Shown one piece after another: positions 2,135 to 53,126 of a DNA stretch of 64,000 nucleotides. Under the pieces are notes generated by a model. It made no database searches, was not told where the DNA came from, and was given only the letters and a program-made list of their open reading frames with translations. This DNA comes from Candidatus Nomurabacteria bacterium. GTDB taxonomy: Bacteria > Patescibacteriota > Minisyncoccia > Phycocordibacterales > CALRBL01. The translations under genes and the position numbers were made by a program. The stretch is taken from NCBI GenBank assembly GCA_963834935.1, contig CAWIDS010000003.1, forward strand, positions 37,999-101,998. The letters run 5' to 3'. Within the stretch, counting starts at the first letter, position 1. Every line of letters starts with the position of its first letter.

Positions 2135-2141
2135 CACATAG

Positions 2142-27951: not shown

Positions 27952-28336
27952 CTTTTTTCTCTTCCGTTTCGAGATTAAGGCAGACTGAATTCATGCAGTA
28001 GCGCTTGCCGGTCGGAGTGCCGATGGCATCATCGAAGATATGGCCGAGATGCGACTTGCAATTGCTGCAGACTACTTCGGTCCTTCTCATGCCATGAGAA
28101 TCGTCATGGATGAATTCGACGCTGCCAGGAAGCGCATCATAAAAGCTTGGCCAGCCAGTGCCGGAATCGAATTTGGTATCGGAAGGAAAGAGCTTCTGTC
28201 CGCAGGCCTTGCACGTATAAATTCCTTTTTCCTTGCTATTCCAATACTTGCCGGTAAAAGGCGCTTCCGTTCCCTTCTCGCGAAGGACCGAATATTCTTC
28301 TGGAGTCAATTTCTTTTTTAGTTCTTCGTTATTCAT
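27938..28336 (-). CDS. msrB: Peptide-methionine (R)-S-oxide reductase
   Basis: CxxC...CxxC zinc site and the catalytic motif RYCMNSV. Confidence 0.9.
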   Translation of the reverse strand: MNNEELKKKLTPEEYSVLREKGTEAPFTGKYWNSKEKGIYTCKACGQKLFPSDTKFDSGTGWPSFYDALPGSVEFIHDDSHGMRRTEVVCSNCKSHLGHIFDDAIGTPTGKRYCMNSVCLNLETEEKKDDEK

Positions 28337-28350
28337 GCTTCCATTCTACC

Positions 28351-29433
28351 CTATTTCGTAAGATTAAAAAGAGCAGGTTCGGTGGAAGTAGCTTCTACCT
28401 TGAAGCTTATCCTTCCGATGTGCTGGCCCGTGCGAGTCTCCACATCTACCCTCCATGAGCCGAGCGCCAAGGAATCCTTCTCGGAATACGTCCGGAAGCC
28501 GTTGTCGCGGCCGCCAACGATGGGAAGGTCGATGCGCGCCGTCTCGACCCACTTCTTGCTCTTGGCGTCGTAATATTGCCAGACATGATAGATATCGGTA
28601 TTGAGGTGGGTCGGCGAAAAGACCGCGCTCCAGACATAGACCGGATCGCCGGCAGCGATATGGACCGTCTCCTGGAATTCGAAGAAATTCCACCAGCTCG
28701 GCAATTCTTCCGCGGTAACGGCATACGTGCCATCTCCATTCCTGGAGATCGAATGATAGATGCCGGCATCCTTAAGCGAAAGCGGCAGCGGCGGGATGAT
28801 ATCGTAGAAATAAAGGACGTTCATGATGACGATGATGCTGAACACGCTTATGAGGACCAGCTTGCGGCTTTGCGCATACTGAGTGGGAGCGATCTTCTTC
28901 AGGATGAAAAGGAATATGCCGATGATGACCAGGCTGATGAATCCGCTCAAGACGAAGATCTCGTCTCCGATCTGATGCACCATTACCGGCACGATGAAGA
29001 TGGCGAAGGAATAAATTGAGACGAAGAGGACTGTTATCTGAAAGACGAGCCGCGTGTAATGCTTTTTCAAGGCCTCGTTGCAGACGAAGACCGCGATGAG
29101 GACAAGGAGGAACGGCCAGCTTACCGCCAGCGTGGCGCTCCTGAAGTAGAAGACGATGAACGTGCTCAACAGTCCTCCGAAGGCGAATTGGATCAAGATA
29201 ACCAGCCAGAAATGCACCCTTTTGTCGCCCTCGGAATTCCTGGTATAAAAATTGATGGCGATGATGCCGAATGCAGCTACTAAAAGATGAGCGAGGACCC
29301 ACAGGTTATCCCAGAACAGGTCCACCCGCGTCAGGCTGACCGCATCGAAAATGAATCCGCTGATGAGGGAAAGAGACGAGATATGCCTTTCATATTTGAA
29401 ATAGAATTTCTTGACGTGCTTCAAGGGCTTCAT
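28351..29433 (-). CDS. Polytopic membrane protein with a C-terminal extracytoplasmic beta-rich domain, possibly DUF2914-like
   Basis: Start placed at the ATG (MKPLKHV). The upstream 300 aa of the 666-aa track ORF have no coding character. Confidence 0.55.
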   Translation of the reverse strand: MKPLKHVKKFYFKYERHISSLSLISGFIFDAVSLTRVDLFWDNLWVLAHLLVAAFGIIAINFYTRNSEGDKRVHFWLVILIQFAFGGLLSTFIVFYFRSATLAVSWPFLLVLIAVFVCNEALKKHYTRLVFQITVLFVSIYSFAIFIVPVMVHQIGDEIFVLSGFISLVIIGIFLFILKKIAPTQYAQSRKLVLISVFSIIVIMNVLYFYDIIPPLPLSLKDAGIYHSISRNGDGTYAVTAEELPSWWNFFEFQETVHIAAGDPVYVWSAVFSPTHLNTDIYHVWQYYDAKSKKWVETARIDLPIVGGRDNGFRTYSEKDSLALGSWRVDVETRTGQHIGRISFKVEATSTEPALFNLTK

Positions 29434-29452
29434 GCCGCAATTGTAACTTGTT

Positions 29453-29481
29453 TTGACAGAAATGAACAGATAAGGTTTAAT
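29453..29481 (+). promoter_or_regulatory. Consensus-like sigma70 promoter with -35 TTGACA, a 17-nt spacer and -10 TTTAAT
   Basis: TTGACA at 29453-29458 and TTTAAT at 29476-29481; the ATG at 29491 is 9 nt downstream, giving a leaderless or near-leaderless transcript. Confidence 0.5.
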
Positions 29482-29490
29482 ACAGGCCGA

Positions 29491-29904
29491 ATGAGCACAC
29501 TGACATCGCCTCAAGATGTCGCAAAACATCTTCTTAGGAACAGCGGTACCCTTCTCGCCATCAAGCGTCAGACCTTGTATGGGGGACAGCCACTGTCGCG
29601 CAGCCAAATCGGATTGTTGAATGAAATTGGAGACCAGATCATCGGTTTCGGCATCGAGATAGAGAATTTGAAAACAAGTGACATCATGCTCGCCATAATG
29701 GCGGTGAATCATGTCAGGAAGTTCGGAAACTCCTTTTCTCACAATGCCGCGTACCGCCGTAAAAATCAGCTCCAACTTAAACTTCTCTACCGGCGCGACG
29801 TTTCGAGACGCGAGGGTAAAGGAGAATACGTCGGCTGTATTGAGCTTGTACACCGGGAACTCAGCACGCATATTCCCTACGACGTCCTGAACGAGATGGT
29901 TTAG
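29491..29904 (+). CDS. Hypothetical protein (137 aa, MSTLTSPQDVAKHLL...)
   Basis: The only long ORF in this region on either strand, placed between a consensus promoter and a terminator-like hairpin. Confidence 0.4.
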   Translation: MSTLTSPQDVAKHLLRNSGTLLAIKRQTLYGGQPLSRSQIGLLNEIGDQIIGFGIEIENLKTSDIMLAIMAVNHVRKFGNSFSHNAAYRRKNQLQLKLLYRRDVSRREGKGEYVGCIELVHRELSTHIPYDVLNEMV

Positions 29905-29911
29905 CGACCCC

Positions 29912-29943
29912 AGCCTGCGTCCCCCGGACCAGGCTTTTTTATT
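29912..29943 (+). terminator. Candidate terminator hairpin
   Basis: agcctg-cgtcccccggac-caggct followed by tttttatttg. Confidence 0.4.
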
Positions 29944-30004
29944 TGACTGAATTTGCCCAGAACCAGACAAAGAGTATACTGTTTCCGAAACCGAAGGAGG
30001 CTTC

Positions 30005-30142
30005 ATGATCAATAAAATCTGGCATAAGCTTGTCAATCTCTTTTGTGTGATTTTTGTCCTTTTAGTGGTCTTCGTGTGGAACATGTGCATATCCGCCGCG
30101 AAGAAATTGAGGCGCCAAAAGAGGAATAAACATCCGAAATGA
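30005..30142 (+). CDS. Small hydrophobic membrane protein (45 aa, MINKIWHKLVNLFCVIFVLLVVFVWNMCISAAKKLRRQKRNKHPK)
   Basis: Strong Shine-Dalgarno site GAAGGAGG 5 nt upstream of the ATG; one transmembrane helix plus a basic tail; a hairpin and T-run follow. Not in the track because it is shorter than 60 aa. Confidence 0.5.
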   Translation: MINKIWHKLVNLFCVIFVLLVVFVWNMCISAAKKLRRQKRNKHPK

Positions 30143-30508
30143 ATGCTCCGCTTGCGTGGGGCTTTTTTAATGATATGTTTATGAAGGAAAAGCATGCGCC
30201 GATAACGCCCTTCTGGTCTTGGGACGGCGCGACAACAAAACCAGCATCCGGCTGCCGACCCAATGAAAAAACGCCACTTCGCACAAAAAATGAAAATGCT
30301 TTGCTTTGGCATTAGAAGTAGGCTTTGGCGCCAAAAAGTCAAAGCGGGCATGAAGACACGATAAAACGCCTTTGTGCCGCCGGTCTGACAGAATCAGGTG
30401 ATTGAGAATAACAGTGCAAATGGCCATACAGTCGCCCAACGGCCAGCAGCCGACTCATGATGAAAAGGGCTGGAATACACTCCTGTCATAGGTGGAAATC
30501 CAACAATG

Positions 30509-30549
30509 GTCCCGCGACGGCTCACATGCCGCGCGGGACCTCTTTTATT
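30509..30549 (+). terminator. Strong rho-independent terminator
   Basis: ggtcccgcg-(14 nt loop)-cgcgggacc followed by tcttttatt. Confidence 0.6.
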
Positions 30550-30596
30550 GACACGTCTATTTAAAGGTATAAAGTTTCCAATCGGAGGAAAAAAAT

Positions 30597-31115
30597 ATGA
30601 ACCTATTAGAGAAATTAGGATTCGGCAGTGCTGCTGAAGTGCAGCGACTGCTTTCAGCTCGTTCCAGTACCAAAGAGAGCGTCCCCGTTCCCCAACAGAC
30701 GAAACCTGCAGTGGCGGCAGATCCGCCGAAAAGGAAAGGAAGGCCGCCGAAGGCGCGCCATGCTGAAAACGGACATGTTGAACCGGCTGCTTCGGAGGAA
30801 ACGCCTCCAGTGAAAAAGACTGTTCGGTCGCGAACGCCGAGGCCTGACCGCCAACAGCTCGGTGAGCGTCTCGGCAGAGAGGCCAAGGTTAATGAAGGAG
30901 ACCGCATCCGCGTGATCGTGGCTGGCCGAGGGCATATTCCGATCAGTAAAATGGAAGACCGGAAAGCGATCGCTTACCTTTCCGAGGGAACCTACTTGCT
31001 GCTTGCAGCCAAAGACGGCTATGGCAATATCTGGTTGATCAGTGAGAAAAGCCCTGAACGAAACTCGGTCGGCAGAAATGCCGCCCGGCCATCGCAAGAT
31101 GGCTTTTTTATTTGA
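30597..31115 (+). CDS. Hypothetical DNA-binding protein with an AT-hook (PKRKGRPPKA) in a disordered basic N-terminal half and a C-terminal AbrB/MazE-like swapped-hairpin-type domain
   Basis: GGAGG ribosome-binding site and a TTGACA -35 at 30548. The GRP AT-hook core is present. The C-terminal stretch RGHIPISKMEDRKAIAYLSEGTYLLLAAKDGYGNIWL resembles SpoVT/AbrB motifs; this is inference. Confidence 0.55.
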   Translation: MNLLEKLGFGSAAEVQRLLSARSSTKESVPVPQQTKPAVAADPPKRKGRPPKARHAENGHVEPAASEETPPVKKTVRSRTPRPDRQQLGERLGREAKVNEGDRIRVIVAGRGHIPISKMEDRKAIAYLSEGTYLLLAAKDGYGNIWLISEKSPERNSVGRNAARPSQDGFFI

Positions 31116-31146
31116 ATCATATATACTCGCTCGAAAGGAGCACATT

Positions 31147-31443
31147 ATGCCGACGACTGAAATAAAAAGAACCGTGGATTTCATCTGGGGAGACCAACGG
31201 CCTTCCCATTGCGGAAAGATTGGCTTTGCCATCGAATGCCAAGGCGGAGTACTGTATGCGTTTATCTTCTTCAACGGAGAAGAGCGCCACATCAGCAGCC
31301 ATTACGATGGCTCGAGCTGGCAAAAGGAAACCATCTCACGAGTTCTTGCGGGATACGAATCCCTCCAAACCGACTTTTCCAAAGAGAGGCGCAAGCTTCT
31401 CGAGGATCAGCTTGAACGAGCGAAAGAACACGCCCTCATCTGA
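31147..31443 (+). CDS. Hypothetical protein (98 aa), partner of the AT-hook protein
   Basis: AAAGGAG ribosome-binding site 7 nt upstream; begins 31 nt after the previous stop; a terminator follows. Confidence 0.5.
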   Translation: MPTTEIKRTVDFIWGDQRPSHCGKIGFAIECQGGVLYAFIFFNGEERHISSHYDGSSWQKETISRVLAGYESLQTDFSKERRKLLEDQLERAKEHALI

Positions 31444-31450
31444 GGGTTTT

Positions 31451-33172
31451 TTATTTGTCCCCTTCGACCTCGGCCTTCACGAAAATCCGAACCAGCTGCA
31501 CTTCGCGGTAACTCACTGCAGGGCTCAGCTTGAATTTCTTCTTGTTCTTCTCAAGGTAATCCTTCGCAGGTGCCAAGCGCCAGTCCTTGTTTTTTTCATA
31601 CATCATGGCAAGCGCTTCAGAAATCGGATCAAAGCGCTTTTTAGGAATGGTTTTGCGGAGATATTCGACTTCTCGCAGGACCGCAGCATCTTCTTCGACC
31701 AATTTTTCAATATGATCGATGACTGTCTGCTCGGTGATTCCCCTCTTTTTTGCGATTTCCTCGATAAGCAATTCTTCCTTGATGAGCTCGTGGGTGACTT
31801 CGAATGTCGAAGGCTTCGCTGCTTTCTTCGGCTTTGATGAAGTGATCGAGGCAAGATAGCTTTCCTGCGCAGACTGAAGCTTTCCTTTCTTTGCGTATTC
31901 CTTGAGCTGCTTGACTGCCGTCTCTGATTGAACCTTCAGCTCTTCATCGTGCTCCAGCACCTCGTCATTGACCTCAAGAGCGCTTTCATTCATGCCAAGT
32001 ATGGTAAGGCCTGCAAGAGTGCGCACTCTGGAAAGCGCCACATAGCCCATTCCCTTCTCGAAGGATTTAGAAAGATCCACTTCTACCGCATCGAGCGACA
32101 TTCCCTGGCTTTTATGAACCGTGATTGCCCATGCCAGCCGGAGCGGATACTGCTGAAGCTCGGCTTTGGCTTTTCCCTCTTCCTCGATGGTCCAGCTTGC
32201 TATCGGAACTTCAATGAACTCGCCGGTGCGCAGTATTTCAACCACTGGCCCTCCGGCATTGCCTTCGAGCTTTCGCACGATTCCGAGGGTTCCGTTGGCG
32301 AAGCCTATCTCGAAATCATTCTTGACGAACATCACGCGCGCACCCGCTTTCAATCGGAGCCTCTCGGGAGCGAGGCAGCTTTTTTTCAGGATCGATACCA
32401 GCATGTCGGAGCCGGAGGTATGCATGTCATAATTCATCGACTGGCCGTCGAGCACGTCGAGCTCATTCTCATTCACCTTGTCCACATCGATATTGTGGGT
32501 ATAAAGGCGCGTCGGCTGGATGCTCATTTCTTCTTCCTTCTTGTTGGCTTTGAAGCATTTCTTCAGATGATCCATCGTGGTTCCGCTTACCCTGTTTCCG
32601 CGGATGTCATTGAGGACGGTCAGCGCGTGGTCGTCCGTCTGTCGGTACTGCTCCTCCAGATAGCAGATCTTGAATCCGGCATTCTTCCATGATTCGGAAT
32701 GGTAGGCGAAATGCGCATCCTGCTCGCCCATCCGCGATACCGGCGGAAGCTGGAAGAAATCGCCGCAAAGGATCACCTGTATGCCGCCGAAAGGCTTGTC
32801 ATTCCTCTTGAAAGTGCGGACTATCTTCTCCACCAGATCAAGGCGGAAATGATGAAGCATGGATATCTCGTCGATGATGAGCACTTTCACGCGCTCCATG
32901 CGCTTCCAGAGATACGGCTTCTCGAGCATCGCCTCAAGGTCGTAGTCGCTGATGCTGTCACGCACGCCGAGGCCTGTCCAGGAATGGATAGTCACGCCTC
33001 CCATGTGCGTAGCAGCAATGCCCGTGGAGGCGGTAATTCCGACATCGACATCATGATGATTAAGGTAATCGATGTACTGATTCAAAAGATGAGTCTTACC
33101 CGAGCCTGCAGGCCCCGTAATATACGCATTGCAGCCGAGCTTGAGGATGTCGAGAGCTTCTTTTTGAGTCAT
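31451..33172 (-). CDS. Pif1-like/RecD-like superfamily 1B DNA helicase with a C-terminal helix-turn-helix-like extension
   Basis: Motifs GPAGSGKT, IIDEISML and ILCGDFFQLPPV, plus a C-terminal domain of about 120 aa (KKRGITEQTVIDHIEKLVEE). Start placed at the ATG (MTQKEALD). Confidence 0.8.
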   Translation of the reverse strand: MTQKEALDILKLGCNAYITGPAGSGKTHLLNQYIDYLNHHDVDVGITASTGIAATHMGGVTIHSWTGLGVRDSISDYDLEAMLEKPYLWKRMERVKVLIIDEISMLHHFRLDLVEKIVRTFKRNDKPFGGIQVILCGDFFQLPPVSRMGEQDAHFAYHSESWKNAGFKICYLEEQYRQTDDHALTVLNDIRGNRVSGTTMDHLKKCFKANKKEEEMSIQPTRLYTHNIDVDKVNENELDVLDGQSMNYDMHTSGSDMLVSILKKSCLAPERLRLKAGARVMFVKNDFEIGFANGTLGIVRKLEGNAGGPVVEILRTGEFIEVPIASWTIEEEGKAKAELQQYPLRLAWAITVHKSQGMSLDAVEVDLSKSFEKGMGYVALSRVRTLAGLTILGMNESALEVNDEVLEHDEELKVQSETAVKQLKEYAKKGKLQSAQESYLASITSSKPKKAAKPSTFEVTHELIKEELLIEEIAKKRGITEQTVIDHIEKLVEEDAAVLREVEYLRKTIPKKRFDPISEALAMMYEKNKDWRLAPAKDYLEKNKKKFKLSPAVSYREVQLVRIFVKAEVEGDK

Positions 33173-33203
33173 GTGGATTGAAGTATATGGTATAATCGCC
33201 TGT

Positions 33204-33557
33204 ATGAAAAATGCCGAAGAAATGGCACAAGAGGAATCAGGAATCCTCAACCACGAGATCACTCCCAAAGACCGCTTGCAGAAGCAGATGGTCCTTGCTG
33301 AGGAGCTCTATATCAGAAATCACCCTGATCAGACGGTAGATGTCGGGAATCATGATATGAGAAATGCGATCATGAACGAGTGGTCAAACATCGACGGAGA
33401 CATGAGCAAAAGCTTCTCTGCCTATTTCAGGGAACTTGAAAATGCCTTAATGGCAAGCCCCGGACACGCTGAACGCGGAAAGACTATTCTCGATATCACG
33501 CTCGACGACCTTATCGCTTTCAAAGAGACAGGAACTCTCCCTCCCGAGTGGCTTTAG
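33204..33557 (+). CDS. Hypothetical protein (117 aa), leaderless
   Basis: TGgTATAAT at 33188-33196 lies 7 nt upstream of the ATG (MKNAEEM). Confidence 0.5.
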   Translation: MKNAEEMAQEESGILNHEITPKDRLQKQMVLAEELYIRNHPDQTVDVGNHDMRNAIMNEWSNIDGDMSKSFSAYFRELENALMASPGHAERGKTILDITLDDLIAFKETGTLPPEWL

Positions 33558-33563: not shown

Positions 33564-34667
33564 TCAGAAAGAACTGGTTACCGGGCTTCCCAAGCCCGTC
33601 ACATAATCATAATGCTTCCGAGCGGTGCAGAAATATCCGCAAGCGCCGTTCGAACCGCTGGTGATGTCCCGGAAATAATTCTGCGGATTGTCACTTGCCT
33701 TGTCTGCATAAAGAATTGAGTCCCTGATAGGACCCATTGAGGCGATCGCTGCCCATTGAGGAGCGCCGGCGCTCGTTCCTCCGACGACATACCATTTTCC
33801 TCGATATATCGGATAGCCGGAATGCGGATCGGCATCGTACGAGACATCAGGTATTGCCCGCATACCGCCTGATTTGCTGATATTGAAACTGTCTTGATAC
33901 GTTCCAGCTTTTTCGAACTGGCTTATGCCGCCTCCGCTGCCGGCCCATGCCGTTTCAGACAGAAGATTTCCGGATGAAGAAAGCGCAAGGCTCGTGCCGC
34001 CGACAGCAATGACATTCGGCGAGGCTGCAGGCCAGCTTGCTCCTGCTCCTTGGTCTCCGGATGAAGCGAAGAATGCTATCGGATGCGCAGGATCAGGAGA
34101 AACGAAATGACTATCAAGGGATGTCTCGTCAGAAAACTCAGGACCGCCCCAGCTCATCGAGACTGAGACGACATCTTTCCTCTGGCGGGCATAATCGACG
34201 GCCTTGAGAAGATTTGGGCCGCTTTGCGTATCAGCTTCAACGAGCAGAATGTGCGCCTGAGGCGCGATGGCGTGAGCCCATTCGACATCCAGGCTCGTTT
34301 CCATCGCCCATCCCGGATCGCTTCTTACTTTTGCCGACATCTTATGCTTCTCGAAGCATCCGTTCGCTGCCGTGCAATCCACCAATCCAAAGGCCTTGTC
34401 GAAAACTGCCAAGTCCTTCTCTATGCTCGGCGCATCATATGCCCCGATAAGAGCGATAGTCCCCTTTCCTCCGGCTTTCGGCAAGTTGTAAATCTGCTTT
34501 ATCTGGTCGGGGCTGAGCCCTTGCGGAAGGGCTGATGTCTTTCCCCAGATGTGGATAGGCGACCTCGCCTTGAAATTGGCAAATCGGTACGCGGCATAGG
34601 CAGGATAGAAATAAAACATCGAGTAGCAGAGCAGCGAGATGATAAGTAGCAATAAATATTTTCTCAT
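33564..34667 (-). CDS. S53 (sedolisin/kumamolisin-like) serine peptidase, secreted
   Basis: Signal peptide; GTSAGAPQWAA serine motif of the S8/S53 fold. Start chosen at the ATG (MRKYLLLL). Confidence 0.7.
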   Translation of the reverse strand: MRKYLLLLIISLLCYSMFYFYPAYAAYRFANFKARSPIHIWGKTSALPQGLSPDQIKQIYNLPKAGGKGTIALIGAYDAPSIEKDLAVFDKAFGLVDCTAANGCFEKHKMSAKVRSDPGWAMETSLDVEWAHAIAPQAHILLVEADTQSGPNLLKAVDYARQRKDVVSVSMSWGGPEFSDETSLDSHFVSPDPAHPIAFFASSGDQGAGASWPAASPNVIAVGGTSLALSSSGNLLSETAWAGSGGGISQFEKAGTYQDSFNISKSGGMRAIPDVSYDADPHSGYPIYRGKWYVVGGTSAGAPQWAAIASMGPIRDSILYADKASDNPQNYFRDITSGSNGACGYFCTARKHYDYVTGLGSPVTSSF

Positions 34668-34773
34668 GCATGCATTGTGGCAAATTCCATTCAAGTGGTA
34701 GAAAAAATTTCCTCAATTATTTATCAAATAAAAAAGCTGCCGATTAAGGCAGCGTACAGCGCAAACTGGAATA

Positions 34774-36401: not shown

Positions 36402-37103
36402 TCATTTGTACAGGCTGGTAATCGATTGGAAATCACCAAGCAGCCTGATGTTGTCAGTGAACACCAAGATGCCGAGCAGGATCAGGAGATAGCCGAAAAT
36501 GCGATTGATGATGACGCTTGCCTTGCCGAAACGGTTGATGAAAGCGGTCGCTTCGGCGGTAAAAATGCCGACAAAGAGGAAAGGCACGCCAAGGCCGAGC
36601 GAATAAGCGAGCAGCAGGAAGAAAGCGGAAACAGGAGCTGAAGTAGCCAAAGCTAAGATACTTCCGAGAACCGCTCCGGCGCATGGCGTCCAACCCACCG
36701 CAAAAGCGATGCCGAAGACGAATGAGGTCAGATAACGCGAATTGAATTTCTTAGCTTTGACATTGTAGGTCTTTTCCATGAAGCCGATATGAAGGAAGCC
36801 TGCAAGGTAAAGCCCGAAGACGATGATGATGATGCCGCCGATGCGGGAGAGCCATGTCTGGACATCAGAGCCGACTGCCCGCAGGACAGTCTGAAGGAGG
36901 ACGCCGAGCAAGGCGAAGATGACCGAGAAACCAAGAACGAAAAAGACGCTGTTAATGAAGACTTCCCGCCTGTTTGCTCCTTTTTCACCTGTAGTAGCAC
37001 CGCCGAGATAGGCTAAAAAGCCTGGGATGATAGGAAGGACGCATGGAGCTAAAAAACTAATAATGCCGGAAAAAAATGCCGTTCCTAAATATATTACGTT
37101 CAT
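36402..37103 (-). CDS. ccdA: Cytochrome c-type biogenesis protein CcdA (DsbD transmembrane-domain family)
   Basis: Six transmembrane helices with conserved Cys in TM1 (FLAPCVLP) and TM4 (WTPCAG). Confidence 0.85.
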   Translation of the reverse strand: MNVIYLGTAFFSGIISFLAPCVLPIIPGFLAYLGGATTGEKGANRREVFINSVFFVLGFSVIFALLGVLLQTVLRAVGSDVQTWLSRIGGIIIIVFGLYLAGFLHIGFMEKTYNVKAKKFNSRYLTSFVFGIAFAVGWTPCAGAVLGSILALATSAPVSAFFLLLAYSLGLGVPFLFVGIFTAEATAFINRFGKASVIINRIFGYLLILLGILVFTDNIRLLGDFQSITSLYK

Positions 37104-37120
37104 AATGTTACAATTCTAAC

Positions 37121-38368
37121 ATGGATACCACAGAAATCTACAATACATATCTGGAATGTGAAGGAGTGTGTACTGACACTCGATCGATCAAGCCCGATTG
37201 CCTTTTTGTTGCCCTCAAAGGCGACCATTTCGACGGCAATGATTTTGCGCTTGAAGCGCTCGAAAAAGGAGCCAAATACGCCCTCGTCGATGATGCAAGA
37301 TTCGGTGGGAAGAAAAACAACAGGATCATCAAGGTGAAAGATTGCCTCGCCTCCCTTCAGGCACTTGCTCATCAGCACCGGAAGCAATTCGACATCCTGA
37401 TAATCGGAATCACTGGCAGTAATGGAAAGACTACCACCAAAGAACTGGTCTCGACCGTACTCAATGAAAAATACCGAGTCATAACGACTGAAGGAAACCT
37501 GAATAATCACATCGGGGTGCCGTTGACCCTGCTTCGCCTCACCAAGAATACGGAAATTGCCGTCATTGAGATGGGCGCGAATCATCTGAACGACATCAAG
37601 GATCTTTGTGAGATTGCCGAGCCGACGCATGGGATAATTACCAACATAGGAATGGCTCATCTTGAAGGTTTCGGTAGCAAGGAAGGCGTCGCGTTCGCCA
37701 AGAGCCAGCTGTATATCTGGGTGCGCGATCATGGCGGAACCATTTTCGTCAATGAGAAGGACAGGGATTTGAAGGAGCTGGCGCTAAAAGTGAATTATGA
37801 GAAATCAGTAAATATAGTCTGGTACGGGAATGAGGAAATTCCCGAGAACGACAGGCTTTTCGGCGAATTCAACAGAGAAAATGTCAGGGCTGCTTATGGA
37901 ATCGGCCTTTTCTTCAAGGTGCCCGTGCGGCAGATCAATCATACCCTCAAGACCTACGTGCCTAAAGACATGCGCGGCGAGAGAAAGGAAACCAAAAGAG
38001 GAAATGAGCTCATCCTTGATGCTTACAATGCCAATCCTTCGAGCATGAAGGCGGCAATCGAGGCCTTCAGTGAGATACGTACAGACAAGATGCGATACCT
38101 CATCCTTGGCGACATGAAAGAGCTCGGCCTTGAATCGGAAAAAGAGCACAAGAAGATCGTTGACCTGATCCGACTGCGGCGCTTCACGCATGTCATCCTT
38201 GTCGGCGAGGAATTCTCAAAGGCTGCCGCCAAAGAAAAAATATTCGTCCCATTCAAGACAACAGCTGAGTGCACTTCTTCATTCTTCATATCCAACATCA
38301 AACGTTCGCTGGTGCTGATCAAGGCAAGCAATAGCATGAAGCTATGGGAGCTTGCGGACAATCTTTGA
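37121..38368 (+). CDS. murF: UDP-N-acetylmuramoyl-tripeptide--D-alanyl-D-alanine ligase
   Basis: GITGSNGKTTT and DAYNANP motifs; leaderless, with TGtTACAAT at 37106-37114 lying 6 nt before the ATG. Confidence 0.85.
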   Translation: MDTTEIYNTYLECEGVCTDTRSIKPDCLFVALKGDHFDGNDFALEALEKGAKYALVDDARFGGKKNNRIIKVKDCLASLQALAHQHRKQFDILIIGITGSNGKTTTKELVSTVLNEKYRVITTEGNLNNHIGVPLTLLRLTKNTEIAVIEMGANHLNDIKDLCEIAEPTHGIITNIGMAHLEGFGSKEGVAFAKSQLYIWVRDHGGTIFVNEKDRDLKELALKVNYEKSVNIVWYGNEEIPENDRLFGEFNRENVRAAYGIGLFFKVPVRQINHTLKTYVPKDMRGERKETKRGNELILDAYNANPSSMKAAIEAFSEIRTDKMRYLILGDMKELGLESEKEHKKIVDLIRLRRFTHVILVGEEFSKAAAKEKIFVPFKTTAECTSSFFISNIKRSLVLIKASNSMKLWELADNL

Positions 38369-38398
38369 GATTGAAGCATTAAATGCTATTATTTTCTG

Positions 38399-38737
38399 AT
38401 GAACATACTTTCAAAAGCGAAACCATGGGGAAATTCGCTGACGCTGACGCAGAATGAGAATTCGACCGTCAAGCTCCTGACTGTGAAAAAAGGTGAGGCA
38501 CTGAGCCTGCAGTATCATCAGAATCGGGAAGAATTCTGGAAAATATTAAAAGGAAATCCGGAGCTTGTCATCGGGGAAAAAACTATCGAAGCTCATCCTG
38601 ATGAAGAATACTCCGTTTTGCGAACTATCAAGCATCGCATCTCAGCGCCAACCGATGATGTCCTCATCCTAGAGATATCAAAAGGAACTTTTGACGAGAA
38701 TGATATAGTGCGCCTTAAAGATAAATATGGAAGATAA
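38399..38737 (+). CDS. Cupin-domain protein (mannose-6-phosphate isomerase type II C-terminal-like)
   Basis: SLQYHQNREEFW cupin motif 1. Confidence 0.6.
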   Translation: MNILSKAKPWGNSLTLTQNENSTVKLLTVKKGEALSLQYHQNREEFWKILKGNPELVIGEKTIEAHPDEEYSVLRTIKHRISAPTDDVLILEISKGTFDENDIVRLKDKYGR

Positions 38738-38767: not shown

Positions 38768-39334
38768 CTAATACTTTCGAATGACGCCTTTCACGATAGC
38801 AGCAATAGTGAGATCATTCTCCGGAAAGATCGGCTTGTATTTCTTGTTAGCAGGTTCAAGGTAAACTTTACCACCTTTCTTGCGTAGATATTTCATCGTC
38901 CAATCACCATCTACTTGGGCGATGACGATGTCGCCATCCTTCGGCTCGTTCTTGCGCTCAACGATAACGAGATCGCCTTCTTGGATGGCGGCATCGATCA
39001 TTGAATCGCCTTTCACTTCGAGAATGTAGGTCTTGTCCTTGTCGCCGACAAGATAGTCGTCGAGGCTTAACATGTCGAGCACTTGGGAATCGGCAACCGA
39101 AGGGATTCCGGCTTCAACCAACCCAAGAAGAGGCAATTCGTTCATCAATGATGTCGGCGTCAGCCGGCCGTTGTCATCCTTGGTGACTATTCCCTCCTCA
39201 ACCAACTTATTGATCAGCTTGTAGACGGCATTCTTGGATTTGAAGCCGACCAGATCCATGATCTCCTTATACCCAGGCATGCGACGATGCCGCTTGTAGA
39301 AGGAAGTTATTTTATTCTTGTATTGCTCGTACAT
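38768..39334 (-). CDS. lexA: LexA repressor (S24 peptidase)
   Basis: N-terminal winged helix-turn-helix; Ala-Gly cleavage site (VEAGIPS); GDSM catalytic Ser; Lys in MKYLRKKGG. Confidence 0.85.
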   Translation of the reverse strand: MYEQYKNKITSFYKRHRRMPGYKEIMDLVGFKSKNAVYKLINKLVEEGIVTKDDNGRLTPTSLMNELPLLGLVEAGIPSVADSQVLDMLSLDDYLVGDKDKTYILEVKGDSMIDAAIQEGDLVIVERKNEPKDGDIVIAQVDGDWTMKYLRKKGGKVYLEPANKKYKPIFPENDLTIAAIVKGVIRKY

Positions 39335-39355
39335 ATTGATGCTTTTGTTCCTGTA

Positions 39356-39562
39356 TTATAGGACGAAAGCGCTTAAAAAACTAAGAGATTCGGAAAGCCA
39401 TGATGAAGTGTAGCCTTGTAGGTCGCGAAGCTGCCTCGAAAGGAACTTGTGTCGGCGCGCTTCATTCTTGTATGGAAGGCCCTTGATGATCTTGATATCG
39501 ATCTCTGCGTTCAGCTTCGACAATTCCCTTTCTATTTTCCTACTTAATGCGTGATTGCTCAT
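39356..39562 (-). CDS. Small protein (68 aa) encoded immediately upstream of lexA in the same operon
   Basis: ATG at 39560-39562, 21 nt ahead of lexA; coiled-coil character, possibly a DUF465-like small protein. Confidence 0.5.
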   Translation of the reverse strand: MSNHALSRKIERELSKLNAEIDIKIIKGLPYKNEARRHKFLSRQLRDLQGYTSSWLSESLSFLSAFVL

Positions 39563-39599
39563 GTTTTTGTTGGTTATTTGATAATTTTCTTATATTTAT

Positions 39600-39628
39600 A
39601 GTATAGGTGAACTTAAGTTCACCGTCAA
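39600..39628 (-). promoter_or_regulatory. SOS promoter on the minus strand: -35 TTGACG, a 17-nt spacer and -10 TATACT, with a LexA operator-like palindrome GGTGAAC-TTAA-GTTCACC (39606-39623) filling the spacer exactly
   Basis: Perfect 7-4-7 inverted repeat of the Cheo-box type GAAC-N4-GTTC, read directly from the sequence. Confidence 0.6.
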
Positions 39629-39723
39629 GCAGATAGTTGTGGATAACTGAAAAAATAGACAATATCGCGAGGAGAAAGGCATAATGATTTTTAAAAAACC
39701 ATCAAGGCTATATCAACCACCCT

Positions 39724-39750
39724 CAGCCTGCGCTAAGCAGGTTTTTTATT
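39724..39750 (+). terminator. Rho-independent terminator upstream of tRNA-Gln
   Basis: cctgc-gctaa-gcagg followed by ttttttattt. Confidence 0.5.
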
Positions 39751-39797
39751 TGCTTGAAATATGCTAAATTGGGAACCTCAAGGGACCGCCCTTACAT

Positions 39798-39871
39798 TGC
39801 GAGATCGTCTAATGGTAGGACATCAGGTTTTGGTCCTGAGTATCTAGGTTCGAGTCCTAGTCTCGCAGCCA
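39798..39871 (+). tRNA. tRNA-Gln (anticodon UUG), CCA encoded
   Basis: Hand-folded cloverleaf: acceptor tgcgaga/tctcgca; D-arm gtct-aatggta-ggac; anticodon stem tcagg/cctga with loop ttTTGgt; T-arm ctagg-ttcgagt-cctag; discriminator g followed by cca. Confidence 0.8.
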
Positions 39872-39931
39872 GCGTATTACACGCCGAGTGACCGACTCGC
39901 GTTATATTTTTCAACCTAAAAAAGTCACTCC

Positions 39932-39944
39932 GTTCGAGTCCTAG
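39932..39944 (+). repeat. 13-nt direct repeat of the tRNA-Gln T-arm (GTTCGAGTCCTAG, identical to 39848-39860); an inverted copy GACTCGAA lies at 39962-39969
   Basis: Exact match 72 nt downstream of the tRNA 3' end, resembling an attachment-site scar. Confidence 0.5.
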
Positions 39945-40031
39945 ATACATGACAGGAAAGAGACTCGAACAGCACTAGGGATGGTGGTTAAGTTTAAATG
40001 ATACAATTAGGTTTATAATATTTTAAAAACT

Positions 40032-40415
40032 ATGAACACGGAACTTATTGAATCTATAGGATCACGAGGTGAAAATTTGCTTGAGAAAAATCTTCACAAA
40101 GATGAAACCGTTCTTGTAAAATTAGGGGGTTCATTTGGTGAAGCTTTGGTTATGACAAACAAGCACGTTTATATTATTAAGTGGGGCTTAATGACCCATA
40201 ATGTTTTTGGAGGCAATTGCAATGCTTTTGATTATGGAAATATTGTTGGACTTGAGATAAAAAGAAGTCTTATAAACGGCACTGTAGAAGTTTTAACTGC
40301 TGCAAATAAAGATGTGAAGACAAGACAATCGGTTACCCGTCGCTCTCAAGGGGGAAACCCTCAGGCTCTTTCTTCAATCGCTTTTTTCTTGTCTGATTTA
40401 TCCTGTCTATTTTAA
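40032..40415 (+). CDS. Hypothetical protein (127 aa) with a bacterial PH-like (bPH/DUF304-like) signature, encoded by a low-GC gene
   Basis: KDETVLVKLGGSFGEALVMTNKHVYIIKWG; the local GC is clearly lower than in the flanks; TATAAT at 40014. Confidence 0.5.
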   Translation: MNTELIESIGSRGENLLEKNLHKDETVLVKLGGSFGEALVMTNKHVYIIKWGLMTHNVFGGNCNAFDYGNIVGLEIKRSLINGTVEVLTAANKDVKTRQSVTRRSQGGNPQALSSIAFFLSDLSCLF

Positions 40416-40563
40416 ATAAGATGTCGAAAAGCCCTGCTAAATTGCGAATACCCTCTGGATCCATGGGATCCTCTACCGCTTCATATGTTACTTCCATATT
40501 TTTTTATGAATATGACTTATAAACGAGACACCGACAGATGTCTCGCTAGGGGAATTCGTTCAG

Positions 40564-41027
40564 ATGATCCGAAAGGAAAATATGCCTGAATCAGAACCGG
40601 AGCAACAGCTCCAAAACCTACGAACGTACCTCACCATCAGCGAGCCTTTCAGACACTACCGCGGCAAATTAGGCAACGGCTGGACAGGAACAGGAATGTT
40701 CCTTGAGCTAAAAGATTCGAGTCCACGGCAATACTCGATCAGTTCGACTGGCGCAATAGCCAGATACGCGTGCTCATGAACCACCGGGCGAAACTTCGTC
40801 GAGACGGTCAACTGGCCGCATTTGAGGAACTCAGCTGCGCACTCACCAACCCTGACTTCGTCATTACTGACGAAGAGCTTCCACTTCACAAGAGAACTCC
40901 CGGCGTCCTGCTTTTGTACTACCCTGAGCGGATACTGGAATTGATCAAGTGGATGAAGCTCGTTAGTCCGGAGATAGTGGACTTGCAGCTTGGTCATCCT
41001 GGATCATTTGCATTTGGATATGAATGA
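40564..41027 (+). pseudogene. Two overlapping ORFs in different frames (71 aa and 85 aa); possibly one disrupted gene
   Basis: The ORFs at 40564-40779 and 40770-41027 overlap by 10 nt; there is no recognisable family; an antisense 113-aa ORF also exists. Confidence 0.25.
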
Positions 41028-41198
41028 TTCGCTCTTCGACCTCAAGCGCTGGCGGGATCAGGAAAATGAACCCGACAAGAATGAAATAGGGCTGAAACTT
41101 CATTTCCTTGAAAATTAAGCAGTTTGATTTCTCACACACTCAGTCCGGACGAAAGTCTAGACGGGGTGTTTTTTATTTCAAATTGGTATACTGTCCCC

Positions 41199-41657
41199 AT
41201 GCAAAATTACTGGCTCATAAAAAGCGAACCGACCTGCTATTCGATTGACGACCTTGCAAGGGACAGGCAAACGCTCTGGACCGGAGTCAGGAATTACCAA
41301 GCACGGAATTTCATGAGGGATGAGATGAAGCCGGGCGACCTTGCTCTATTTTATCATTCAAGCACCGAGGTGATCGGCGTCGTTGGCGTTGCAGAAATAT
41401 CCGGTCCGTCCGTATTCGATAAGACAGCCTTAGACAAGAAAGATGATCATTTCGACCCGAAAGCCACCAGGCAAGATCCGATCTGGTATGCGGCACAAAT
41501 AAAATTCAAAAGAAAATTGGCAAAGCCAGTGACATTGGTACAGATAAAATTCAACCCGAAGCTCAAAGGCATCATGGTAGCAGCTACCGGATCGCGCCTT
41601 TCCGTCCAACCTGTCTCGGAAGCTCATTACAAGGAAATCATTGCCATGGCGGAATAA
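41199..41657 (+). CDS. EVE (PUA-like) domain protein
   Basis: YWLIKSEP...WTGVRNYQARNFMRDEMKPGDLALFYHS; leaderless, with TGgTATACT at 41184-41192 lying 6 nt before the ATG. Confidence 0.7.
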   Translation: MQNYWLIKSEPTCYSIDDLARDRQTLWTGVRNYQARNFMRDEMKPGDLALFYHSSTEVIGVVGVAEISGPSVFDKTALDKKDDHFDPKATRQDPIWYAAQIKFKRKLAKPVTLVQIKFNPKLKGIMVAATGSRLSVQPVSEAHYKEIIAMAE

Positions 41658-41700
41658 TTAACCAATTCTCTCTGTCCAGATTTTTTATTATAATATATCC

Positions 41701-42666
41701 ATGAGCACCGAAAAGAAATTCGCTTTCCTCCGCATCGCCTTCGGCTGCGTTTGGGCTATTGATGCCTGGTTCAAGTGGCAGCCTGCATTCCTTAATGGTC
41801 TCAGCGACATGCTGACATCAATGCTCGCCGGCCAGCCGGGGTGGGTCCAGGCATGGATCAACCTCTGGATATCCATAATCAGCATCAATCCTCACTTTTT
41901 TGCTCTCATCATCGCCCTCACTGAGACCGCAATTGCCCTCTCCCTCATCTTTGGCTTCCTTACCCACATTACGCTGGCCACAAGCATCGTTTTCTCGCTG
42001 CTCATCTGGTCTGTCGGAGAAGGATTCGGCGGCCCATATGCGGCAGGCTCGACAGACATGGGCTGTGCCGTTATATATGCATTCGTTGCCGCTGCCTTGT
42101 GGTTCGGCCATTCATGGAGAGCTTACAGCGCTGACAGCCTCATATGGAAAGATCCCCATCATGTTGCCGTCGTCCGCGAAGATAAGAAAGATACCATCAT
42201 CAAGCTTCTAATTCTTGGCATCATTATCCTTGGCTCGATCATTCTATCTGCTCACGTACCCGCAGCAACAGCGCCTTCTGATCAAAGCATAAGCACCGGT
42301 CCCGGCGCCATGGCGCCTGCAGGCATGACACTGAAAACACTCGACCTTGCTCCGACTGATCCTGTTCCCACCGTCGCTTTCACTATCAATAAGGATCCTG
42401 TGGCCATGGGCGGCTGGGATGTGCATATCACCACCACGAACTTCATCTTCACGCCGCAGAACGTGAATCAGGCGCCCGTCGTAGATCAGGGCCATGCGCA
42501 TTTGTATGTCGACAGCAAGATGTATGTCGTCTACGGTAATTGGTATCACCTCGACGATGTCCCTCCCGGACAGCATCTCATAACCGTCTCCCTTATGGCC
42601 AATGACCACAGCATTTTCTCGAAAAACAGGCAATGGATCGAAGCCACGACAACGATTAACCAATAG
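41701..42666 (+). CDS. DoxX-family membrane protein fused to a C-terminal extracytoplasmic domain of about 130 aa
   Basis: Four transmembrane helices (DoxX-like) followed by a soluble domain containing GHAHLYVD. Confidence 0.6.
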   Translation: MSTEKKFAFLRIAFGCVWAIDAWFKWQPAFLNGLSDMLTSMLAGQPGWVQAWINLWISIISINPHFFALIIALTETAIALSLIFGFLTHITLATSIVFSLLIWSVGEGFGGPYAAGSTDMGCAVIYAFVAAALWFGHSWRAYSADSLIWKDPHHVAVVREDKKDTIIKLLILGIIILGSIILSAHVPAATAPSDQSISTGPGAMAPAGMTLKTLDLAPTDPVPTVAFTINKDPVAMGGWDVHITTTNFIFTPQNVNQAPVVDQGHAHLYVDSKMYVVYGNWYHLDDVPPGQHLITVSLMANDHSIFSKNRQWIEATTTINQ

Positions 42667-42680
42667 AAAGTTAGAAAAAA

Positions 42681-42710
42681 TAAAAATCCCCTTGCTGGGG
42701 ATTTTTATTT
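42681..42710. terminator. Bidirectional intrinsic terminator
   Basis: aaaaa-atcccc-ttgct-ggggat-ttttatt. Confidence 0.65.
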
Positions 42711-43549: not shown

Positions 43550-43687
43550 TTGATTTTTAAGGGTTAGTCTAATAACAAGGCTTCACAGCCTCATACTCTT
43601 AATACGTTCCCTGTGGCAAAAGGTTGCATCAATGCTTTTTTACACCACATTTATGCTTTTGTTACAAAAAGTGAGATAATACACGCA

Positions 43688-44389
43688 ATGAAAGGGAAAA
43701 TAGCAATCATCACCGGAGGCGAGCGAGGCTTAGGAAAAGCTTTGGCAGTACTTCTCAGATCAAAAGGGGTTGAAGTGGTCATTTGCGGCGTCGAAAAAGA
43801 AGAGCTTGAGAAAACCGCGAATGAGCTCGGCGTTACGCCCTTTTTTGCTGATGTTTCTGAGGAAGAAGAGGTGAAGAATGCGGCGAGAGAGACGCTTGCG
43901 CGCTTCGGCGCGATAGATATATGGATAAACAATGCGGGCGTCTGGATTCCGCGCATGCCGATCGAAGAAATCGACACTCAAAAAGCAAAACGGCTTTTTG
44001 AGGTTAATGTCTTCGGATCAATCTTCGGAATGAAATCGGCGGTCGCTGCGATGAAGGATCGAGAAGGCGGAACGATCATCAATATTCTCTCCACTACTGT
44101 GTTTCCCGGCGGCAACGGATCAAGCTCATGCATCTACACCTCAAGCAAATCGGCAATCAAGGGATTCGCCGAAGCGCTTCGCGAGGAACTCAAAGGAACA
44201 GCTATCAGGATAATCAACGCCTACCCCGGCGGAATAAAGACAGACCTCTTCAATGAGAAGATTCCCGCAAACATCGGCGACTTCATGACGCCTGAATCGG
44301 TCTCGGAAAAGATCGTCGCTAATCTCGAAAAAGAAAATCCTGAGCTCGATCTCATCATCAAGCGTCCGGGACAAAGCATCATCTTATGA
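43688..44389 (+). CDS. SDR-family oxidoreductase
   Basis: TGGERGLG NAD(P)-binding motif; YxxxK. Leaderless, with TGaGATAAT at 43672-43680 lying 7 nt before the ATG. Confidence 0.85.
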   Translation: MKGKIAIITGGERGLGKALAVLLRSKGVEVVICGVEKEELEKTANELGVTPFFADVSEEEEVKNAARETLARFGAIDIWINNAGVWIPRMPIEEIDTQKAKRLFEVNVFGSIFGMKSAVAAMKDREGGTIINILSTTVFPGGNGSSSCIYTSSKSAIKGFAEALREELKGTAIRIINAYPGGIKTDLFNEKIPANIGDFMTPESVSEKIVANLEKENPELDLIIKRPGQSIIL

Positions 44390-44662
44390 AAAAGACAAAA
44401 CTCGAAACGATGAGAAAAAAACTGAATGTACTCGATGAAAGGCTCATCCGCATCCTTGCAAAAAGGCAGTCTTACATGCCGGCAATCGGCGCTTGGAAAA
44501 AAAGAATGCAAGCTGCCCATAAGTTACCCTGCGCGAGAAAGAGAGATCATCAAGAATATGCGCGCGCTTGCAAAGGAGAAAAATATTGACCCTGACCTAA
44601 TCGAGAAGATATTCAAAGCAATCTTCAAGGACGCAAAAAGGATTCAGAGGTATAATGACTAG
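44386..44662 (+). pseudogene. AroQ-type chorismate mutase interrupted by a frameshift in an A7 run at 44497-44503
   Basis: The N-terminal part (MKKTKLETMRKKLNVLDERLIRILAKRQSYMPAIGAWKK) and the C-terminal part (KLPISYPAREREIIKNMRALAKEKNIDPDLIEKIFKAIFKDA) lie in two frames; deleting one A restores a single 91-aa ORF. Confidence 0.6.
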
Positions 44663-45079
44663 ATGAAAGGGAAAAATCAAAATGAAAGAGAATACAGGGA
44701 ATACAAACGTCCGAGCTGGGCTCCACCATCGTGGCTTTTTGCGCCGGTATGGAGCTTCCTTTATGCCCTGATATTGGTCTCGTTCAGCTATGCAGGCTAT
44801 CTCTATCTCGCCCGTGTGATACCCTTCATTGTACTGCTGCCGTTCATCCTCAACATTATCTTCAATGTCACCTACACGACATTTCAATTCAAGCTGAAGA
44901 ATTTCGTGCTCGCTTCCATTGATGTGCTTCTTATCCTCGGCACCCTCATCTGGGCAATGATAACAGTCTATCCTTTCGTCCATTGGGTCACCGTCATCAA
45001 CATCCCTTATCTGCTCTGGGTTTCCTTCGCTACCATCCTTGAATTCACCGTAGTCACGATGAACTGGAATAGGAAATAG
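44663..45079 (+). CDS. tspO: TspO/MBR (tryptophan-rich sensory protein) family protein
   Basis: SWAPPSWLFAPVWSFLY and five transmembrane helices. Confidence 0.8.
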   Translation: MKGKNQNEREYREYKRPSWAPPSWLFAPVWSFLYALILVSFSYAGYLYLARVIPFIVLLPFILNIIFNVTYTTFQFKLKNFVLASIDVLLILGTLIWAMITVYPFVHWVTVINIPYLLWVSFATILEFTVVTMNWNRK

Positions 45080-48319: not shown

Positions 48320-48353
48320 AGTATTATTCTAACATACGTTATATAATTTTTAT

Positions 48354-49787: not shown

Positions 49788-50245
49788 ATTTCAGGTTTGC
49801 TATCTATCTTCCGTATGCGCCGGAGGTGCTTCTCTTCATTCGAGAACGGAGTCGCAAGCCAAAGCGAGACGGTATTTTCAGCTTCCTCAGCCGAAATGAA
49901 ACGCGCGCCGAGCGAAAGGATATTAGCGTCATTATGCTCCCGCGAAAGCTCTACTATCTTCATATCGCCGCCGTAATATAGTGCTGCACGCGCACCTCTG
50001 AAGCGATTGGCTGAAATGGCTTCTCCTTGGCCTGAACCGCCGATGATGATTCCCTTCGTGTCGTCGGAGGCTACTGCGATCTTTTCAGCCACCTTGTTTA
50101 TATAATCCGGATAGTCATCGTCCGCAACAAACGAAAACGCCCCGACATCTTCAACATCATACTGAGCATTCTTGAGGAATCCGATGAGTGTTTTTTTTAA
50201 TTCGAAGCCCGCATGGTCTGATCCGATGATTATTTTCATATACAT
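49784..50245 (-). CDS. rpiB: Ribose-5-phosphate isomerase B
   Basis: KIIIGSDHAGFELK N-terminus typical of RpiB/LacAB. Confidence 0.85.
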   Translation of the reverse strand: MYMKIIIGSDHAGFELKKTLIGFLKNAQYDVEDVGAFSFVADDDYPDYINKVAEKIAVASDDTKGIIIGGSGQGEAISANRFRGARAALYYGGDMKIVELSREHNDANILSLGARFISAEEAENTVSLWLATPFSNEEKHLRRIRKIDSKPEI

Positions 50246-50274
50246 ATATTATCATATAAGCTATAATAAATTAT

Positions 50275-51612: not shown

Positions 51613-51619
51613 AAGAGCA

Positions 51620-53089: not shown

Positions 53090-53126
53090 GAAACGGGCTT
53101 AAATACAAAAAATGGAAATAAAAAAA

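Follow-up and report, generated by a model that had tools for sequence, protein, structure and literature searches.

A Pribnow box lying 6–8 nt from where the first genes of operons begin is the signature of group C in the GeneMarkS-2 scheme (PMC6028130). The group is typified by the Actinobacteria and Deinococcus-Thermus, with 25–50% of transcripts predicted to be leaderless (PMC6028130), and group C genomes that use genetic code 11 have been reported to be almost all of high G+C content (preprint 10.1101/2022.07.25.500264). Here we examine a 64,000 nt stretch of contig CAWIDS010000003.1 (hereafter the window), in which many genes begin a few nucleotides beyond a TA-rich hexamer, TAnnnT, that resembles the −10 box of a promoter. 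Bacteria of the Candidate Phyla Radiation (CPR), to which this DNA appears to belong, are mostly uncultured and have reduced ribosomes, and the anti-Shine–Dalgarno (anti-SD) sequence goes undetected in about half of the Parcubacteria, which raises the question of how they start translation. Tsurumaki et al. (2022) detected the motif in just 48% of the Parcubacteria and did not settle the manner in which translation begins there (PMC9297842). A full-text search outside subscription journals found no study of leaderless mRNA in Patescibacteria, CPR, Parcubacteria or Saccharibacteria.

The −10 box and its distance from start codons

The UvrB protein encoded in the window is 72–78% identical to named Candidatus Paceibacterota, Paceibacter, Taylorbacteria and Patescibacteria group proteins, and this single marker would place the organism among the Parcubacteria-type members of the CPR (Patescibacteria/Paceibacterota-like). 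An earlier note, made from the letters of the window, had remarked that an extended −10 box recurs about 6–7 nt upstream of the ATG of many genes, and had taken this to imply widespread leaderless mRNAs. The pattern TAnnnT is a loose one, found 1383 times in the window, and the regions upstream of genes are AT-rich, both of which would favour regarding the recurrence as an artefact of chance or composition in AT-rich intergenic DNA, or of the choice of start codons. When the distance of every −10-like hexamer to every ATG was taken on both strands, with no use of annotation, the spacer length peaked at 6 nt, for TATAAT-like hexamers (18 against about 6) and for TGnTAnnnT (9 against about 2). 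In a gene set compiled blind to the motif (codon-scored, non-overlapping open reading frames [ORFs], the first ATG of each; n=64), TAnnnT begins exactly at −12, that is with a 6-nt spacer, at 17 of the 64 starts; it begins at −13 once and at −11 twice, neighbouring offsets hold 1–5, and the mean per offset over −45 to −17 is 2.2 (binomial p ~1e-19 against an all-ATG background). In-frame internal ATGs of the window have no −12 peak, only a codon-phase ripple.

The same peak is present in related DNA. Among 120 database-called starts from the loci of six relatives (UvrB 75–83% identical), TAnnnT stands at −12 in 24, against about 4.5 per offset. A further 80 metagenome loci, about 1 Mb with UvrB 56–73% identical, gave 737 motif-blind genes, among which the box stands at −12 in 119 and at −13 in 54, where the level per offset is about 21; here the −12 fraction drops from 19% to 11.5% as UvrB identity falls, and is zero in some loci. 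Over the window, the relatives and the 80 further loci the p values of the peak span 1e-8 to 1e-24. The window has a G+C content of 48%, and relatives with the same peak range from 31 to 53%. A scan of reference genomes with MurF yielded distant matches only and no orthologous promoters, and the loci that it returned (identity ≤43%, mostly Bacteroidota) served as controls: under identical processing, Bacteroidota and three other phyla show no −12 peak. Enrichment of the motif was thus found in the wider scan, recurring in about 1.2 Mb of relatives' sequence and absent from the control phyla. A peak at a single offset with neighbours at background in the window, the relatives and the 80 loci, at starts picked blind to the motif and with no counterpart in the control phyla, effectively refutes an origin by chance or composition, to which we give next to no credence. 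The recurrent −10 arrangement is confirmed as real, and far beyond chance.

Conservation is also seen gene by gene. The uvrB hexamer at −12 is kept in five of the six relatives (L009, L010, L011, L014 and L015), its sequence varying across window and relatives between TATAGT, TAAAAT, TAGTAT and TATAAT. The FKBP gene has TGnTAnnnT at −12 in three relatives as well (L009, L011 and L015), and the mreB orthologue of the closest relative, L009, has TACACT at −12.

All the sites that the earlier note had listed are present in the window sequence, and none of the following has a Shine–Dalgarno (SD) core:

37106–37123, plus strand: murF promoter and start; TGtTACAAT at 37106–37114, spacer 6 nt, ATG at 37121–37123
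41184–41201, plus strand: EVE-domain gene; TGgTATACT at 41184–41192, spacer 6 nt, ATG 41199
43672–43690, plus strand: short-chain dehydrogenase (SDR) gene; TGaGATAAT at 43672–43680, spacer 7 nt, ATG 43688
54010–54027, plus strand: M10 metalloprotease gene; TGaTATAAT at 54010–54018, 17 nt past a terminator (53971–53993), spacer 6 nt, ATG 54025
33188–33206, plus strand: 117-aa ORF; TGgTATAAT at 33188–33196, spacer 7 nt, ATG 33204; divergent from the PIF1 helicase gene (ATG 33172), with 31 bp between them
2126–2144, plus strand: 88-aa ORF (2142–2408, terminator at 2445–2477); TGgTTTACT, a weak hexamer, spacer 7 nt, ATG 2142
4611–4625, minus strand: uvrB; TATAGT at 4620–4625, spacer 6 nt, ATG 4613; TG directly abuts the hexamer and so is not a canonical TGn

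Further sites of the leaderless type, all with a 6-nt spacer, are:

7178–7195, minus strand: FKBP isomerase gene; TGgTATCAT, ATG 7180
10743–10757, minus strand: mreB; TAGACT, ATG 10745
14880–14897, minus strand: ABC transporter ATPase gene; TGtTATAAT, ATG 14882
28334–28348, minus strand: msrB (SelR); TAGAAT at 28343–28348, ATG 28336
29431–29445, minus strand: DUF2914 membrane protein gene, start corrected; TACAAT, ATG 29433
34665–34682, minus strand: S8 peptidase gene; TGcCACAAT (first base degenerate), ATG 34667, downstream of a terminator (34728–34753)
38384–38401, plus strand: cupin/mannose-6-P isomerase-like gene; TGcTATTAT, ATG 38399
41689–41703, plus strand: hypothetical gene, 321 aa; TATAAT, ATG 41701
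44651–44665, plus strand: TspO/MBR gene; TATAAT, ATG 44663
48317–48356, both strands: back-to-back divergent pair with a 34-bp intergenic region; transketolase-N gene (minus strand, TGtTAGAAT, ATG 48319) and 251-aa ORF (plus strand, TATAAT, ATG 48354)
50237–50254, minus strand: rpiB; TGaTAATAT, ATG 50239
51610–51624, minus strand: GAPDH gene; TATAAT at 51619–51624, ATG 51612
53072–53086, minus strand: gatB; TATACT, ATG 53074, downstream of a minus-strand terminator (53119–53142); TG abuts the hexamer directly, as at uvrB
56478–56492, minus strand: S41 (Ctp) peptidase gene; TACTGT, ATG 56480

The perfect TATAAT box of the GAPDH gene includes the TAA stop codon of gatB, and the msrB box begins 2 nt past the stop codon of the upstream DUF2914 gene; in both cases promoters appear packed into the ends of genes.

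With a downstream start allowed where the first ATG was clearly wrong (two gene models were corrected), the firm sites in the window number 19, each a TAnnnT with a 6-nt spacer; three more have a 7-nt spacer (33204, 43688 and 2142), one is degenerate (ATG 34667) and three are weak or doubtful (12878, 26006 and TTG 59164). Leaderless-type genes, about 22–25 in all, make up about 36% of the approximately 67 window genes, and about 40% of the approximately 48 that do not lie within 15 nt of an upstream gene on the same strand. All firm sites have an ATG start, and the sole TTG case, 59164, is doubtful. This gene, recR, was dropped as a firm leaderless case on account of its TTG start and of the 9-nt gap that separates it from dnaB. 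A 666-aa ORF on the minus strand (28351–30351), with TATCGT at −12, was rejected because only its C-terminal third is real, being the DUF2914 gene that starts at 29433 with a box of its own.

Three lines of evidence confirm the start codons on which these distances depend. Pfam domains start at residues 2–10 of the predicted proteins, examples being:

EVE: residues 3–150, Pfam profile 1–145
RpiB: residues 3–145, Pfam profile 1–138
MreB: from residue 6, Pfam profile from 2
GatB: from residue 8, Pfam profile from 2
GAPDH: from residue 7, Pfam profile from 2
MsrB: from residue 10, Pfam profile from 1
SDR (adh_short): residues 4–191, Pfam profile 1–190

The MurF N-terminus, MDTTEIY, aligns with MDIRTLY, MDITALY and MEIETLY of homologues. 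By exact-sequence look-up, the public gene calls for the contig agree on the start of 10 of the 12 genes tested (uvrB, murF, FKBP, GAPDH, gatB, S41 peptidase, EVE, SDR, the 33204 ORF and S8 peptidase), the 415-aa MurF and 711-aa UvrB products being identical to those of the window; in the public record rpiB is called at a different start and the DUF2914 start at 29433 is not called.

Promoter or translation signal

The composition of the sites is that of a promoter. Among 23 window sites, T is found at −15 in 14 and G at −14 in 13, as in an extended −10 (TGn), and a pyrimidine at −1 precedes the A of the start codon in 16; no −35 consensus is visible among them. The pyrimidine–purine step is the usual context of a transcription start. 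At the 119 metagenome-locus sites T-15 reaches 62% and G-14 58%, against about 30% and 18% in flanking positions, and the −1 pyrimidine 73%. Of the 21 window sites that have TAnnnT at −12, one also has an SD core in the same upstream region; of the 24 in the relatives, none does. In three SD-led ORFs, described below, the −10 box lies 17–24 nt upstream of the ATG, the normal distance for a promoter. Terminators stand directly upstream of the starts at 54025, 53074 and 34667, and divergent start codons lie only 17–45 bp apart at 37103/37121, 33172/33204, 48319/48354 and 7180/7226, so that at several boxes there is no room for another promoter. The motif is also present where translation plays no part:

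39762–39871, plus strand: tRNA-Gln (39798–39871) with an upstream −10, TGcTAAATT at 39762–39770, 27 nt before the tRNA and directly past a terminator (39727–39749)

This site shows the motif serving as a promoter −10, and these are features of a promoter and not of a ribosome-binding site.

The hexamer could instead be a signal read on the mRNA, a non-SD site for the ribosome or for protein S1 that resembles the motif of GeneMarkS-2 group B (Bacteroidota), with the promoters lying further upstream. SD sequences are indeed missing from most genes, and group B-type motifs are known near starts (PMC6028130). Over all CPR loci the box stands at −12 in 10.9% of tightly coupled internal genes, well above a background of about 3%, and in 18.3% of the others (Fisher p=0.014); it is commonest, at 31%, where the gap to the upstream gene is 16–40 nt. 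The depletion at internal genes is thus only partial, and the hexamers found there fit internal promoters, although a role at the mRNA level would be allowed too. A group B motif would, however, be expected at all genes (PMC6028130), and this one is rarer at internal genes. It also precedes a tRNA gene, terminators or divergent genes lie so close upstream that a second promoter would not fit, and the Bacteroidota control loci, taken through the same pipeline, lack the −12 peak. The motif moreover matches the promoter consensus down to the TG at −15/−14 and the pyrimidine at −1, for neither of which do we know of a role in translation. We consider a translation signal of this kind improbable.

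The interpretation that we favour, and hold to be likely, is that transcription from these extended −10 promoters begins with the A of the ATG and gives rise to leaderless mRNAs. Bacterial RNA polymerase normally starts about 7 nt past the last T of the −10 box and prefers a purine that is preceded by a pyrimidine. When a hexamer occupies −12 to −7, the canonical start falls on the A of the start codon, where transcription is predicted to begin on this spacing and start-base preference. We take the element to be the −10 box of sigma-70-type promoters, often TGnTAnnnT and with no recognizable −35; it ends 6 nt, sometimes 7 nt, ahead of the start codon. The resulting mRNA would have neither a 5′ leader nor an SD site, and its 5′-terminal AUG may be bound directly by the ribosome, either as the 70S particle or as the 30S subunit with initiation factor 2 and fMet-tRNA. 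Direct recognition of a 5′ AUG is known from the Actinobacteria and Deinococcus. We infer this position of the transcription start, and this mode of ribosome recruitment, from the layout of the DNA.

A variant of this interpretation, to which we give a little less weight still than to a translation signal, is that the hexamers are promoters whose transcripts carry leaders of 1–5 nt, or whose true start codons lie elsewhere. Spacers of 7–10 nt do occur (7 nt at 33204, 43688 and 2142, 9 nt at 37103 and 10 nt at 61717), and the relatives show a mild enrichment at offsets −13 to −15. In the dominant class, however, the spacer is exactly 6 nt and the canonical +1 coincides with the A of the start codon, and Pfam domains and homologous proteins back the start codons. 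In functional terms, transcripts whose leader does not exceed 5 nt usually count as leaderless, and the variant is a refinement more than a true alternative. The 9-nt spacer belongs to the divergent partner of murF:

37101–37121, minus strand: CcdA-like/DsbD_TM gene; TGtTAGAAT at 37113–37121, spacer 9 nt, ATG 37103; Pfam match to residues 5–214 (profile 4–214)

Its transcript is predicted to carry a leader of 2–3 nt, and its −10 box overlaps that of murF together with the first base of the murF start codon. A 16-bp quasi-palindrome, TGTTACAATTCTAACA (37106–37121), fills the 17 bp that separate the two genes and reads as an extended −10 on either strand, TGtTACAAT on the plus and TGtTAGAAT on the minus. 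In this it resembles the pseudo-symmetrical bidirectional promoters described for E. coli and Salmonella (PMC12825309, PMC10268837).

Several points weigh against leaderless transcripts. The +1 position is deduced from rules of spacing; among tightly coupled internal genes about 11% have the −12 hexamer, against a 3% background; several hexamers are weak, among them TAAAAT at 12878 and TAATTT at 26006; the 59164 candidate has a TTG start, which is unlikely to function leaderless; and public gene callers may themselves use upstream motifs, so that their agreement on start codons is not a fully independent check.

If leaderless transcription is nevertheless as widespread as we think likely, it would serve about 40% of the genes outside tight coupling to an upstream neighbour. 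Translation of downstream cistrons would mostly do without SD sites and probably proceed by coupling, given how common junctions of −4 to +14 nt are; some of these cistrons would have a leaderless promoter of their own within the end of the gene before them. Short leaders with an SD would be left to a small minority of genes. The claim of widespread leaderless mRNAs is thus well supported in silico in its core, with the transcription starts predicted from spacing, and its secondary parts, on initiation modes and on a cluster of SD-led genes, need amending as set out below.

Shine–Dalgarno-led genes and other features of the window

SD cores are scarce, occurring at about five of 64 window genes and at 11 of 120 genes of the relatives, and enrichment at −13 to −9 is just 3–4 fold. 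Operon-internal genes of the window are often overlapping or 1–14 nt apart, with A-rich and almost SD-free junctions, which we interpret as translational coupling. The earlier note had proposed two initiation modes, with the SD-led genes clustered in a pocket at 30–31.5 kb. Leaderless-type and SD-led genes are both seen, but at least three classes must be distinguished: about 36% of genes are of the leaderless type, fewer than 10% are SD-led, and the majority have A/U-rich upstream regions with neither signal, many of these being tightly coupled to the upstream gene. As for the pocket, its three SD sites, before 30005, 30597 and 31147, were all found, and they are the three best-spaced of the window, in consecutive mini-units at 29.97–31.45 kb, each with a promoter of the sigma-70-like type, an SD at good spacing, a short ORF and a terminator:

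29953–30170, plus strand: mini-unit 1; TTGCCC, 16 nt, TATACT (end 29980); GGAGG at 29996–30000; ATG 30005; 45-aa ORF; terminator 30145–30170
30548–31111, plus strand: mini-unit 2; TTGACA, 16 nt, TAAAGT (30548–30575); GGAGG at 30584–30588; ATG 30597; 172-aa AT-hook-like ORF; terminator 31088–31111
31122–31454, plus strand: mini-unit 3; TATACT at 31122–31127; AAGGAG at 31135–31140; ATG 31147; 98-aa ORF; terminator 31433–31454

SD-led genes also occur elsewhere, however:

9024–9045, minus strand: native SD-led gene; GGAGGAG at 9039–9045, 12 nt before ATG 9026; in L009 the syntenic orthologue carries AGGAG 6 nt upstream of its ATG
11241: gene with a GTG start, preceded by AAGGA

A foreign origin of the pocket was considered, and nothing was found in support: there was no G+C anomaly, no Pfam domain and no relative among viral contigs. 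A Pfam search with the ORFs of mini-units 2 and 3 gave no match, nor was there an Rfam match in 29400–30620. The 30005 ORF lies inside the artefactual 666-aa ORF of the opposite strand and not in annotated intergenic space. Because native genes with good, conserved SD sites are present both here and in relatives, the lineage probably retains the 16S anti-SD, and these sites argue weakly against membership in the subgroup of Parcubacteria that lacks it. A search for ribosomal RNA with Rfam found only a tRNA in the window and only tRNAs in the loci of seven relatives, and a search by sequence pattern, for the 3′ end of the 16S rRNA and for the 515F site, had no match in any of 95 loci.

Several other features of the window merit mention. 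In the 1.1 kb or so at 29434–30560 only the 45-aa SD-led ORF at 30005 has convincing coding potential, and a Pfam search with a 205-aa plus-strand ORF (29287–29904) had no match; the region may be a gene in decay or may encode an RNA of unknown kind. At 38768–41110, a LexA-like S24 peptidase gene (38768–39334) and tRNA-Gln (39798–39871) are followed by an AT-rich stretch (39900–40450, 36% G+C), with ORFs at 40032–40415 (plus strand) and 40656–40997 (minus strand); this might be a small integrated element beside a tRNA. Directly upstream of the gene for ribosomal protein bL21 (ATG 60617) there is a perfect 7-bp inverted repeat with no T-tract, GCCATAT-tcttgt-AATATGGC (60618–60645, minus strand), which may be a ribosomal protein leader or a regulatory hairpin; it matched no Rfam family at the gathering threshold. 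Two ORFs overlap on opposite strands within 53112–53642, at 53112–53549 (plus strand) and 53133–53642 (minus strand), of which the minus-strand ORF is more likely to be the real gene because a terminator (53119–53142) follows it; its first ATG, a doubtful start, comes 3 nt after the end of another terminator. Intrinsic terminators are stereotyped throughout the window, a GC-rich hairpin followed by TTTTTTAT(TT), as at 2445–2477, 31433–31454, 34728–34753, 39727–39749, 53971–53993 and 63840–63865, and several convergent genes are served by face-to-face pairs (e.g. 42679–42709 and 31423–31454). Lastly, the best MurF relatives in the reference-genome scan (gene 37121–38368) are Bacteroidota proteins at 39–43% identity, with no CPR match, whereas UvrB has many CPR relatives at 70–83%. 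The contrast may reflect horizontal transfer of murF, or may simply be an effect of the peptide-pattern search.

Comparison with known systems and significance

The layout itself is well known, and what is described here is a known mechanism in a new lineage; its value lies in that lineage, in the low use of SD sites that accompanies it and in the mid-range G+C content. It is interesting to speculate, and we put the chances at about even, that CPR bacteria of the Paceibacterota type form a third large clade with pervasive leaderless expression, after the Actinobacteria and Deinococcus-Thermus, and the first of low-to-mid G+C content with the standard code, in which SD sites are marginal, first cistrons are leaderless and the rest rely on SD-independent coupling. 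If this is true, it would offer a concrete explanation of how many Parcubacteria tolerate the loss of the anti-SD and a reduced ribosome, and gene-start models for CPR metagenomes should gain a promoter-at-start term. A conserved promoter-at-start signal would give a testable answer for a large share of CPR genes and better calling of start codons in CPR metagenome bins. It would also account for the fitting of two divergent promoters into intergenic regions of 17–45 bp, and might supply minimal promoter-plus-start cassettes for the emerging genetics of Patescibacteria.

In their composition the sites resemble extended −10 promoters that lack a −35: TG is found one base upstream of the hexamer in about 55–60% of them and there is no −35 consensus. 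They differ in that TG is not universal and abuts the hexamer at uvrB and gatB; the three SD-led units are different again, since −35-like hexamers are present there. Like the SD-poor Bacteroidota of group B, the window has no SD at most genes and A-rich sequence before the ATG, but unlike them it has the −12 promoter peak, which is absent from the Bacteroidota control loci. The closest likeness is to group C, as in Mycobacterium tuberculosis and Deinococcus deserti. In both, a TAnnnT box stands at the expected spacing before starts that have no SD, and is found preferentially at first or uncoupled genes, although the depletion at internal genes is partial here; the 25–50% of transcripts predicted to be leaderless in group C compare, in the window, with about 36% of all genes or about 40% of those that are uncoupled. 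The remaining genes of group C, however, use SD sites, whereas here fewer than 10% have an SD core and internal genes are almost SD-free. Group C genomes with code 11 were reported to be almost all of high G+C content, in contrast to 48% in the window and 31–53% in its relatives, and the lineage here is that of the Patescibacteria/CPR.

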